Shown in pieces: positions 56,322 through 58,401 of a stretch of 64,000 bases of DNA (position 1 is the stretch's first letter; each line of letters begins with the position of its first letter). The stretch is from Candidatus Parcubacteria bacterium (GTDB lineage Bacteria > Patescibacteriota > Patescibacteriia > UBA1558 > GWA2-36-10). The DNA is taken from the NCBI GenBank assembly GCA_018664825.1, contig JABJNO010000010.1, forward strand, positions 8,832-72,831, written 5' to 3'. The notes under the pieces are model-generated. The model did not search any database. It was given only the letters and a program-made list of their open reading frames with translations, and was not told where the DNA came from. The translations under genes were made by a program, and so were the position numbers.

Positions 56322-56456
56322 ATTTTTATTTTTTAATCTATATCCATTATGCCAAATTGAGCTAATAATGGCAATAGTTGACAATATGCCTAAAATTCAA
56401 TAGTATAGAATGTTACTTTAGATCATTACATTTTAAAAACAACTAGGAGGTAATCA

Positions 56457-57539
56457 ATGAACCCCGAAGACAATGAAGTCCCCGTGGATGAGAGGTGTAT
56501 CCATGACATCTATCCACCCTGGTGTGGGATGTGCAAAAAGCTCAAAGAATCAAGAACAAAACGAACTCCGCAGCACCGAGATCCTGGAAGCAAAAAAAAG
56601 GGACTAGTAATTCCTAGCACCAACGTGGTAGATAGGAGTTATGCTTTGGTCCAAACCGCCGGTGGTGAAAAGAAAAACAAGTTTTTACAAATCACCACAG
56701 GAACTCACCGAGTGCACATCAATGGCTTTCCCAACTTTTGGGCCATCAAGAGAATACTAGAAAGAGGTCCTAATATCCAAAGAATCACTATGATTCCTTC
56801 TTTTTTGAGAAAGTTGGGCGAGAAACACAAAAAGCTGTGTACTGACCGAGGTGTTGTTGTCTGTTCTGGCTACCATCGACCTGAGGTAGCTTGGCGTGAA
56901 AATGAATCTCGCTCGGTCCACTACAATGCTCAGCGTAAATTTATGACTGCGCTGGAAGGTGACCAAAAAACCTTGTTTGATGAGTTGATTAGGTTCGGAT
57001 TTACCAGTGCTGAGATGGCAGCTCGATACTTTTGTCTCAACGACGAAGATTTCCTGACTCAGGAAAAAGTCGGCTGGGAATTTGGTTTTGTTGCTTGCAA
57101 TAACACCGCTCCCGTTTCGTCATACATAAACGCTGTCCTCTGCTATCTGGACAACGAGCTCGAAACAGGCCAAGCATCAAAGAGAATTGCTGGCTCCATG
57201 GCAACAAGAGTCAAGCGTCTGCGTGCTTTGATTAGTCAAGAAAAAGTCTTACAGGCTCTCCTTGAAAAACTAGGCATTGAACAATTGCCCGAAGGCATGC
57301 CTCCGGCTATGCTTGATAATTTGGAAGCTATCCTAGCGACCGAAAAAGATGGCCGATTCGCCAGACTCAAGGTTTCTTCTCCTCGTCTCCACAAAATCAT
57401 TGCCCTGCGGTATGGTCGCACTGACAACAAGTGGCATGTCTTACAAGAAATAGGCACTCGCCACAAAGTCACTCGCGAACGTATTCGCCAACTCGAAGGC
57501 CAAGCCTTTGAAGAATTGGGTATTGAACAAGTTCATTGA
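56457..57539 (+). CDS. Hypothetical DNA-binding protein with a C-terminal sigma-70 region-4-like HTH and an N-terminal Cys cluster
   Basis: C-terminal LHKIIALRYGRTDNKWHVLQEIGTRHKVTRERIRQLEGQAFEEL resembles sigma-70 region 4.2. N-terminal CIHDIYPPWCGMC. GC-rich. RBS AGGAGG. Confidence 0.45.
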   Translation: MNPEDNEVPVDERCIHDIYPPWCGMCKKLKESRTKRTPQHRDPGSKKKGLVIPSTNVVDRSYALVQTAGGEKKNKFLQITTGTHRVHINGFPNFWAIKRILERGPNIQRITMIPSFLRKLGEKHKKLCTDRGVVVCSGYHRPEVAWRENESRSVHYNAQRKFMTALEGDQKTLFDELIRFGFTSAEMAARYFCLNDEDFLTQEKVGWEFGFVACNNTAPVSSYINAVLCYLDNELETGQASKRIAGSMATRVKRLRALISQEKVLQALLEKLGIEQLPEGMPPAMLDNLEAILATEKDGRFARLKVSSPRLHKIIALRYGRTDNKWHVLQEIGTRHKVTRERIRQLEGQAFEELGIEQVH

Positions 57540-57548
57540 ACACTAGCA

Positions 57549-57580
57549 CCGGCCGAGCAAAGCTCGGCCGGTTTTTTTTA
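57549..57580 (+). terminator. Rho-independent terminator
   Basis: CCGGCCGAGCAAAGCTCGGCCGG followed by TTTTTTTTA. Confidence 0.8.
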
Positions 57581-57653
57581 TTTGACTAAAAGTATCAGGT
57601 ATTATAAGTTTAGCATCTAGTTCTTTACATATTTGTGACAGCATTTTGAGTTT

Positions 57654-58316
57654 ATGAGCTATAAATCCAGAATACTGTCACAAAAGAGTTGGTATGGTAC
57701 CATCCACCACAACATCGTGGTTCAATTGGCAGTAGGAGGTAATGATGTGAAACGCTTTATAAAAACTACTTTTCAGTGGGATACTATGAAGCTGGAAACT
57801 GATCTACGTGATCAAGAAAGCTCTGATGTAGCCGGAAAAAATATTTGTTATCTGCTCGATGAATTATCTATCGTGTCCGTCCCGCACTCTGCTGGTACAA
57901 GACGAGGCACGGTCTGTCTCAAAATCAAGATGCAAAATGGCGATGGCCCCCAAAAAGACGGAGTTGAAAACCTTAGGCGTCGCCTAATCTCTTTGAGTGA
58001 TTCTCAAAAGAGAAGTATTTCTTTTACCCGTGGATTCCCTGATATGAGCGACAACCCTGCTTTCCGTGTCACTTTTGACCTCAAAAAAGGAGAACAATTC
58101 ACTGATGCCGCTATTGAAGTGGCCAGCTTTATTTTCCACAAGCTAGGAATCAAAGACAGAGAAGCTCTCAAACACCACCTAGGACTTTTTATCACCCGAC
58201 AAGAAACGCTGCTTTTGGTAGCTGGAGATTGGATTCCCTTTGAGCAACATGTCCGCCATCAATATGGTCTACACAATCCAGAACACACCAGTCAAATCGA
58301 ACTCCAACTCGCATAA
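57654..58316 (+). CDS. Hypothetical protein (GC-rich island gene)
   Basis: 220-aa ORF, GC-rich, no recognisable motif. Followed by a terminator. Confidence 0.4.
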   Translation: MSYKSRILSQKSWYGTIHHNIVVQLAVGGNDVKRFIKTTFQWDTMKLETDLRDQESSDVAGKNICYLLDELSIVSVPHSAGTRRGTVCLKIKMQNGDGPQKDGVENLRRRLISLSDSQKRSISFTRGFPDMSDNPAFRVTFDLKKGEQFTDAAIEVASFIFHKLGIKDREALKHHLGLFITRQETLLLVAGDWIPFEQHVRHQYGLHNPEHTSQIELQLA

Positions 58317-58325
58317 ACTCATATA

Positions 58326-58358
58326 GGGACAATGCAACGCATTGTCCCTTTTATTTTT
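58326..58358 (+). terminator. Rho-independent terminator
   Basis: GGGACAATGCAACGCATTGTCCC followed by TTTTATTTTT. Confidence 0.8.
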
Positions 58359-58364
58359 ACAAAC

Positions 58365-58391
58365 AAAAAACCACCCTTTCGGGTGGCTTTT
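58365..58391. terminator. Bidirectional hairpin terminator (serves tsf on the minus strand)
   Basis: AAAAAACCACCCTTTCGGGTGGCTTTT. Confidence 0.65.
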
Positions 58392-58401
58392 AAAAATATT
58401 T

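Follow-up and report, generated by a model that had tools for sequence, protein, structure and literature searches.

The analysed stretch, referred to below as the window, comprises 64 kb of a Candidatus Parcubacteria genome (assembly GCA_018664825.1, contig JABJNO010000010.1), with a GC content of 36% and nearly every gene on the minus strand. Between tsf and pyrH, two GC-rich genes (gene 1 and gene 2) are located on the plus strand. With moderate confidence, the pair is interpreted as an accessory insertion of about 2 kb that was acquired in two steps, and gene 1 as the gene for a DNA-binding transcription regulator of the sigma region 4 type. The island is ordinary in itself; interest lies in the gene 1 family (about 300 clusters), in which the -35-reading domain of housekeeping sigma factors was kept and all else was replaced by unknown modules. 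Members of the candidate phyla radiation (CPR, Patescibacteria) have tiny genomes in which hardly any regulators can be recognised, and how they control transcription has scarcely been studied. The family is a testable candidate for a lineage-typical regulator or RNA polymerase accessory factor with a new domain combination. If gene 1 encoded only an ordinary helix-turn-helix (HTH) regulator, the finding would amount to a routine small island.

Site, composition and history of the insertion

Relatives were collected by a Tsf protein scan, with one genome per species. The five closest (L006-L010) have Tsf identities of 67-79% to the window. In 5/5 of them rpsB, tsf, pyrH and the PSP1 gene are contiguous, and neither gene 1 nor gene 2 was matched by tblastn. 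No remnants of the gene 1 family were found in the spacers of any of the five. An earlier interpretation made from the letters alone (the sequence-only reading) had proposed that the two genes were inserted between tsf and pyrH, and had named relatives with both genes in place and of host-like composition as the contrary case. All five relatives keep tsf next to pyrH, and no such contrary case was found.

In the spacers of L006-L010, the tsf terminator hairpin is followed within a few bases by the conserved pyrH promoter (CTTGCTATTATT...TTTGGCATAATGG). Upon alignment of these spacers with the window, homology restarted at the pyrH promoter (TTGCCATTATTAGCTCAATTTGGCATAATGG) and at the tsf terminator. 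Both signals are intact in the window and lie 2 kb apart. The insertion would have landed in the few bases between them, a neutral spot at which both host genes keep their own signals. Because of this position, no operon was broken. In 5/5 relatives tsf and pyrH are separate transcription units (terminator, then promoter), and the disruption of the gene string therefore matters less than the sequence-only reading had implied: the insertion stands, and its importance as an interruption of a conserved string is reduced. In most of the more distant CPR genomes (L011-L050, Tsf identity 43-49%), a PSP1-domain gene directly follows tsf and pyrH is missing there; the rpsB-tsf-pyrH string is therefore not conserved across the radiation.

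The flanking genes had clear Pfam assignments. The true start of pyrH is probably the ATG at 56321 (MPKNKRILIKVSG) and not the upstream TTG at 56384; an independent gene call in L097 gave a pyrH product of 239 aa, in agreement with this start. The -35-like hexamer of gene 1 lies back-to-back with the -35 hexamer of pyrH on the opposite strand, with a gap of 3 nt. At the other end, the terminators of gene 2 and tsf are likewise back-to-back and have one T-run in common. Both island genes end in strong terminators (hairpin plus T-run) and gene 1 has its own ribosome-binding site (RBS), as had been noted before (coordinates in Table 1).

Gene 1 has a GC content of 0.46 and gene 2 one of 0.43, versus 0.33-0.36 in the flanking genes. 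At third codon positions (GC3), the values are 0.44 and 0.39, versus a mean of 0.28 (sd 0.048) for the 50 other genes of the window. With these 50 host genes as reference, the GC3 z-scores are +3.3 and +2.3, respectively. Gene layout, GC and GC3 agree on a GC-rich pair on the opposite strand, as initially described.

The exact gene 2 protein is on record in 21 contigs from various ENA, JGI and Logan samples, and both island proteins are present in two NCBI records of metagenome-assembled genomes. Ten of the 21 contigs were fetched; all span both junctions with 99.9-100% nucleotide identity to the window. The island is fixed in a near-clonal population that has been sampled widely. A sharp GC shift and a strand switch at each junction would also be expected of an assembly chimera, or of a contaminant fragment fused to a Parcubacteria contig. 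This explanation carries practically no weight: the same junctions recur in contigs from many samples and different assemblers, so the island is no chimera; its proteins occur in both metagenome-assembled genome records; and its edges fall exactly between functional signals.

No integrase, transposase or recombinase gene was found, the island consisting of only two open reading frames (ORFs), neither of which encodes a recombinase. No direct or inverted repeats border it, and no tRNA gene lies beside it. The idea that att-like direct repeats might be present at the flanks did not hold. The sole candidate near a boundary, a 12-nt repeat (CCTTTTATTTTT; 56304-15 and 58347-58), was rejected as att site or target duplication, since one of its copies falls within pyrH coding sequence, on the far side of the conserved promoter. 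The island resembles classical genomic islands and integrative elements in its atypical composition, its absence from sister lineages and its own promoter and terminators. It differs from them in its size of only 2 kb and in lacking a recombinase, flanking repeats and a tRNA neighbour.

Gene 2 was confirmed to be without recognisable features. Among 5.8 billion proteins no homolog other than itself was found, and there was no match in Pfam, PHROGs, NCBIfam, PADLOC, PDB or phage records. No relatives of gene 2 were detected in any fetched locus or elsewhere in the window. Length (220 codons), RBS and terminator argue that it is coding. It shows no variation in the population. The annotated ATG has no RBS. 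A GTG at 57747 (189 aa) lies 7 nt after an AGGAGG at 57734-57739, with the same RBS sequence (AGGAGGTAAT) as in gene 1, and is the more likely start. Gene 2 is probably transcribed on its own. It is no conserved companion of the gene 1 family: the genes that follow the gene 1 homologs of L001, L002 and L004 show no relationship to gene 2 or among themselves. A role as sigma region 2 partner was rejected too, as gene 2 does not resemble any sigma domain.

Between the gene 1 terminator and the likely gene 2 start lies an imperfect inverted repeat (Table 1), whose outer 10 bp are perfect and whose apex contains the annotated ATG of gene 2. It is no terminator, because no T-run follows. It could be an operator, a hairpin in the 5' untranslated region of the RNA or an insertion scar. 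A repeated operator was rejected: the core octamer occurs three times in the window, twice as the repeat's own arms, versus 1.2 occurrences expected by chance.

In a neighbour-joining tree (RpsB+Tsf+PSP1), the window is sister to L006, which is without the island; taken alone, the tree points to a gain on the branch leading to the window. The closest homolog of gene 1 (P0005) shares 48.8% identity over 254 aa; other family members reach at most 42%. It is encoded on a 1-kb contig (L106, 1-1006, Logan SRR31802805), where a convergent tsf follows and the two 3' ends are 68 bp apart. Over its last 54 residues, this Tsf has 70% identity to window Tsf. No gene 2 is found between the two genes. GC is 0.50 for the P0005 gene versus 0.42 for the tsf fragment. 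On this contig the genes are arranged tail-to-tail, with one bidirectional terminator common to both. P0005 was shortened to 199 aa by the gene caller; its frame continues without a stop as far as the contig end and covers the alpha/beta domain described below.

Since a second lineage of the clade has a homolog beside tsf but no gene 2, gene 1 is older than the window's species. The island is probably composite, and not recent and species-specific. At least two steps are proposed: gene 1 would have arrived first, because it is common to another clade lineage, and gene 2 with its upstream hairpin would have entered afterwards, at a point between the terminators of gene 1 and tsf. Gene 2 and its upstream region look like a second, later insertion between two terminators.

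A further GC-rich pair is located on the plus strand at 60124-62053, divergent from rpsB, and encodes a 371-aa NUDIX-domain protein and an NAD kinase. The former is a probable fusion of nicotinamide mononucleotide (NMN) adenylyltransferase and Nudix domains (NMNAT/Nudix). The same pair is found at the same place in L006 (3101-5024), with 69% and 57% identity. Its GC3 there is 0.52 and 0.45, elevated as in the window, with neighbours at 0.26-0.29. Since this pair kept its GC from before the split from L006, high GC is no clock in the clade; compositional patches survive across deep splits.

These long-lived patches make atypical composition compatible with an old origin, and hence with the alternative that gene 1 beside tsf is the ancestral state of the clade and was lost several times, instead of being gained on the window's branch or exchanged among clade members through recombination in the conserved flanks. 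The closest homolog at the same place in L106 is in line with such a history, as are the identities of the L106 Tsf fragment, which is no closer to the window (38/54) than to L008 (40/54); the window and L006 agree at 44/54. Ancestry is nevertheless considered unlikely. It needs at least three independent clean losses (L006; L007/L008; L009; L010), the relatives' spacers hold no gene remnant and their terminator-promoter architecture is intact and conserved, and more distant CPR genomes have no gene 1 at the site.

In L008, an unrelated 360-bp GC-rich insert, which includes a GC-rich hairpin, occupies the same gap between tsf terminator and pyrH promoter (6775-7226). It carries a hydrophobic ORF of 44-47 aa (MKHFLSEVRRTFFEEGGSGGPLVFAILLGTVIAVIAAILSPLWA) on the opposite strand. 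Its interpretation as a decayed island copy was rejected, as the two show no similarity. The gap looks like a recurrent landing site. For gene gain in streamlined genomes, this would mean that, without mobility machinery, a terminator-to-promoter gap receives insertions repeatedly (one in L008, two in the window lineage).

The gene 1 protein and its family

A word-indexed search returned only seven relatives of gene 1. By exhaustive profile search with the N-terminal 300 residues, 296 representative clusters were obtained at E <= 1e-3, and 167 at E <= 1e-30. The family is genuine, moderately large and uncharacterised. The AlphaFold2 (AF2) model of the gene 1 protein has a mean predicted local distance difference test score (pLDDT) of 80.5. 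The only name given to a family member in source records is 'sigma factor-like helix-turn-helix DNA-binding protein' (P0012, MFH0969141.1, Patescibacteria), an automatic NCBI name from region 4 alone. This protein has the same architecture as gene 1 and matches the gene 1 N-terminal profile at E = 2.5e-85. No paper was found in the literature on the gene 1 family or the DUF1699_N domain, full-text matches being FAM83 papers that are apparently unrelated; the same negative outcome applied to DUF1699 proper and to region-4-only proteins in Patescibacteria.

The C-terminal 55 residues form a genuine region 4 of the type found in group-1 sigma-70 factors (Taq sigmaA, 1KU7; RpoD 540-613). Residues 308-354 matched Pfam Sigma70_r4 (PF04545) with E = 4e-8 (33.1 bits, cut-off 24.1). 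A profile search of the PDB matched SigA/RpoD with E = 2e-15, and hhalign matched RpoD region 4 with a probability of 96.8%. Foldseek aligned the domain to Taq sigmaA region 4 (1ku3, 1ku7) at a target template modelling (TM) score of 0.69-0.80 and 37-40% identity. Best NCBIfam matches were RpoD models. Its recognition helix, VTRERIRQ, has the same sequence as E. coli RpoD 582-589, and R340, E341 and R344 are the equivalents of sigma70 R584, E585 and R588, for which genetic and structural evidence has established that they read the -35 hexamer (PMC2613000). Across the family, the consensus t-r-e-r-x-r-Q is retained, and Q345 is conserved at 83%. In the gene 1 protein, the basic RKLR helix end is replaced by FEELG and the chain stops a few residues later.

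The remainder of a sigma factor was not detected. In Pfam, gene 1 had no match to region 2 (PF04542) or region 3 (PF04539). Among full-length NCBIfam sigma models, the best score was only that of region 4 (36 bits versus cut-offs of 240-800 bits). With RpoD and divergent sigma factors, phmmer matched only region 4 and detected no region 2 ORF in the window. In hhalign of the gene 1 family against a sigma alignment, only region 4 was aligned. One HMMER alignment ran into SigA regions 3.1/3.2, but an assignment of residues 239-300 to these regions was unsupported by hhalign and was not adopted. Since region 2 is missing and no region 3 was recognised by Pfam or hhalign, the gene 1 protein is not a sigma factor. 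Unlike group-1 sigma-70 factors, it has no recognisable regions 1.2, 2 or 3 and carries about 300 residues of unrelated N-terminal modules in their place. Pfam, motif and sigma searches agree with the sequence-only reading of a region 4 HTH and an N-terminal Cys cluster without region 2.

Four parts precede region 4, in the order knuckle, alpha/beta domain, helical domain and long helix. The helical domain was aligned to the C-terminal region 4 of the same family (hhalign 86.5%, E = 4.5e-6, 55 columns in register), with RpoD region 4 as second hhalign match (E = 1.3e-3), and weak matches in the same register were found to RpoS region 4 in the PDB (E = 0.15-0.3). Judged by these profile alignments, it is a degenerate second HTH of the sigma region 4 type with an altered 'recognition helix'.

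The alpha/beta domain, modelled alone, reached a pLDDT of 87 and a predicted TM score (pTM) of 0.77. Conservation analysis identified H87 (98%), G90, W95, P114 and G138 as near-invariant. Precomputed labels for DUF1699_N (PF28505) were present on the homologs P0002, P0003 and P0014, some of them weak or faint. Archaeal DUF1699 (PF08004) was matched weakly in P0116 and P0125 (E = 0.002-0.009; 16-18 bits versus a cut-off of 33.4). Gene 1 itself had no DUF1699 match in the Pfam scan, for which a Pfam copy without PF28505 was used. Folds like 3ff4 (CoA-binding-like) or dCMP deaminases were the best PDB fold matches, with TM of about 0.4 over 52-59 columns, and were rejected: Foldseek returned nothing at E <= 1e-3, and the deaminase H/CxE and PCxxC motifs are absent.

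The N-terminal knuckle would bind metal. The motif CxH-x(6-9)-CxxC is present in 71/127 family members. In the AF2 model it lies in a short, low-confidence N-terminal segment that is joined to the alpha/beta domain by a disordered linker.

Proposed role of gene 1 and alternatives

Gene fusions and neighbourhoods were surveyed for further members of the family, the fusion scan being limited to the 10 longest of the 150 best clusters. In P0116, sigma region 3 precedes the family module and region 4 follows it; in P0087 and P0131, a whole small sigma factor precedes the module. A DnaA domain IV HTH is added C-terminally in P0099, P0115 and P0097. Family genes adjoin DUF8128 and TraG/TrwB-like ATPase genes in L004 and L086, and in L086 a gene for a region 4 plus HARE-HTH protein is located beside the family member. 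A HEPN/MNT pair and type IV pilus genes are found near members in L089 and L092. L088, L093 and L095 have a conserved block in common, in which the family gene is accompanied by genes for RNase III, a DEAD helicase, ParB-like proteins and sigma factors. The contig of one member (L087) is phage-like and also encodes ERF, a PHROG helicase and a small sigma factor. In L087, L088 and L093, the distance from the family member to a sigma gene is no more than a few kb. The rare fusions to sigma regions 2-3 and to the DnaA HTH, together with the nearby sigma genes and the HARE-HTH neighbour in L086, were counted in favour of a link to transcription or DNA transactions. L093 also contains two tandem paralogs of the gene 1 family (1444-3380). 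In other genomes the GC of the family gene is host-like, unlike in the window.

No family members were found in IMG/VR scans. By tblastn against GenBank phages and PLSDB plasmids, only region 4 matches to sigma factors were obtained; among PADLOC defence models only the region 4 of MzaA matched, and a BFVD fold search gave only weak sigma matches. A phage, plasmid or defence origin of gene 1 was rejected on account of these negative searches, with one homolog on a phage-like contig.

In the proposed mechanism, the gene 1 protein would bind -35-like DNA (TTGACA type) via its C-terminal region 4. Transcription would be modulated through occupation of these sites or through a bridge to RNA polymerase or a sigma factor, and the N-terminal modules may supply oligomerisation, sensing or partner contacts. 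On its own it could not melt promoters or act as a sigma factor, because region 2, and probably region 3, is lacking. Several points weigh against this proposal and the insertion history attached to it. The strict recognition-helix pattern is present in only 63/127 family members, and -35-like specificity may perhaps be confined to one subfamily. Neither sequence nor fold searches of the PDB gave a significant neighbour for the alpha/beta domain, and the near-invariance of H87 could mean an enzymatic and not a regulatory role. The gene contexts differ (TraG-like ATPases, type IV pilus, ParB-like genes, phage-like contig) and indicate no single process. DNA binding by the gene 1 protein, its target sequence, contact with RNA polymerase and the regulatory effect are what we infer. 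Finally, the direction of change (gain versus loss) rests on five relatives, the 54-residue Tsf fragment of L106 and a neighbour-joining tree with a short internal branch.

Other roles were weighed against that of a regulator. A split or modular sigma factor, in which gene 1 would give region 4 (for -35 DNA and the beta-flap) to a separate region 2(-3) protein, is unlikely. The three clusters in which sigma regions 2-3 are fused to the family module and the sigma genes within a few kb of other members fit this idea, and sigma domains on two polypeptides have a precedent in the two-subunit sigma factor SigO-RsoA of Bacillus subtilis (PMC7826278). Like one subunit there, gene 1 carries only part of a sigma factor. 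Unlike in that system, no region 2-type partner is encoded beside gene 1 or in the window; gene 1 also has large extra domains that are absent from SigO and RsoA, and no common ancestry was evident beyond region 4. Gene 2 has no sigma similarity and is not kept beside other family members, and the sigma fusions are rare (3 among the 10 longest clusters). The L088 sigma proteins, labelled with regions 2 and 3 only, had appeared as a lead for a split sigma factor; the lead was rejected after a divergent region 4 was read by eye in both (FVRFYGLDG...TREWVRQ), so that neither needs a region 4 donor. A still further-reaching idea, regarded as very doubtful, is that the family is a new RNA polymerase specificity subunit in which zinc knuckle, DUF1699_N and degenerate region 4 replace region 2 as the part that binds the polymerase or a partner. 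If true, region-2-less or modular sigma factors whose intact region 4 reads the -35 element would exist across CPR bacteria and mobile elements, and the rare sigma 2-3 fusions would show both halves acting together.

Region 4 might instead serve as an RNA polymerase decoy with anti-sigma-like action, competing with the housekeeping sigma factor for the beta-flap tip or remodelling the holoenzyme, with DNA binding being incidental. An anti-sigma-like or transcription-factor decoy had been one suggestion of the sequence-only reading, a mobile-element regulator the other. The closeness to group-1 sigma factors noted above (identity to Taq sigmaA, RpoD models as best NCBIfam matches) would suit such a decoy, as would an N-terminal Cys/His cluster like that of some zinc-dependent sigma antagonists. 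This is thought improbable: a pure flap decoy would not need the -35-reading residues, which are kept; neither Pfam nor NCBIfam gave a match to zinc anti-sigma factors or any anti-sigma family; and the short, low-confidence segment has the spacing C-x-H-x6-C-x2-C, unlike the H-x3-C-x2-C (HxxxCxxC) of zinc anti-sigma factors (ZAS). Quite unlikely, too, is that gene 1 encodes no transcription regulator but a protein that binds specific DNA sites for a mobile element or for a system of partition, replication or DNA transfer/uptake. The DnaA domain IV fusions, the synteny with ParB-like, RNase III and DEAD helicase genes, the adjoining DUF8128, TraG/TrwB-like and type IV pilus genes and the phage-like contig all point in this direction. 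However, no such genes are near in the window, where gene 1 stands alone with an orphan, the contexts are heterogeneous, and the searches of IMG/VR, GenBank phage records and plasmids yielded no member of the family.

Coordinates and other features of the window

Table 1. Features at the tsf-pyrH locus, with positions in the window
Feature	Position	Strand	Description	Basis
PSP1 gene	beyond pyrH in the 55.6-59.9 kb gene order	minus		
pyrH	55602-56321	minus		
pyrH promoter	56346..56374	minus	-35 TTGCCA, 17-nt spacer, TG-extended -10 CATAAT; host sequence outside the insert	promoter scan
Accessory insertion	56375..58365	strandless	~2.0 kb, between pyrH -35 hexamer and T-run of tsf terminator	
Gene 1 promoter-like site	56378..56406	plus	TTGACA, 17-nt spacer, TAGTAT; consensus match 10/12	promoter scan
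Gene 1 RBS	56445-56450	plus	AGGAGG, 6 nt ahead of ATG	
Gene 1	56457-57539	plus	360 aa	ORF call
CxHx6CxxC knuckle	56496..56534	plus	putative zinc site (C14, H16, C23, C26)	homolog alignment
Alpha/beta domain	56634..56906	plus	residues 60-150, beta-beta-alpha-beta-alpha-beta	precomputed Pfam PF28505 (DUF1699_N) labels on homologs
Helical domain	56916..57164	plus	residues 154-236, near-invariant RYFCLNG motif	
Long helix and connecting helices	57171..57350	plus	long helix at residues 239-272	AF2 secondary structure
Canonical sigma-70 region 4	57354..57521	plus	residues 300-355	
Gene 1 intrinsic terminator	57548-57572, T-run to 57582	plus	hairpin with 11-bp stem, 9 GC pairs	terminator scan
Imperfect inverted repeat	57632..57684	plus	24 nt, TTTGTGACAG...CTGTCACAAA	repeat finder, RNA fold
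Gene 2	57654-58316	plus	220 aa from ATG at 57654	ORF call
Gene 2 intrinsic terminator	58325..58349	plus		terminator scan
tsf terminator	58366..58391	minus	host sequence outside the insert	terminator scan
tsf	58402-59175	minus		
rpsB	59191-59871	minus		

Further GC-rich genes (0.48-0.52) are located on the plus strand at 12618-15108 and 16405-17571, with GC3 z-scores of +3.9 to +5.8. They encode a class I tRNA synthetase of the Trp/Tyr type, a pyridoxal phosphate (PLP)-dependent decarboxylase and a glycosyl transferase family 3 protein. Every gene of atypical composition in the window is encoded on the plus strand.

Between gap (GAPDH) and the PSP1 gene, four tandem paralogous genes of 134-155 aa are arranged on the minus strand (52971-54737). 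WG-containing beta repeats were detected in the two that were scanned with Pfam, and a third was flagged by precomputed labels. The array is also present in L097. A giant ORF of 2535 aa occupies 20303-27910 on the minus strand. In a tRNA cluster at 41646-42389, ARAGORN assigned the anticodon AAA to tRNA-Phe, for which GAA is usual. A 96-nt tRNA at 41852-41947 was detected by Rfam and not by ARAGORN, and may have a long variable arm or an intron.

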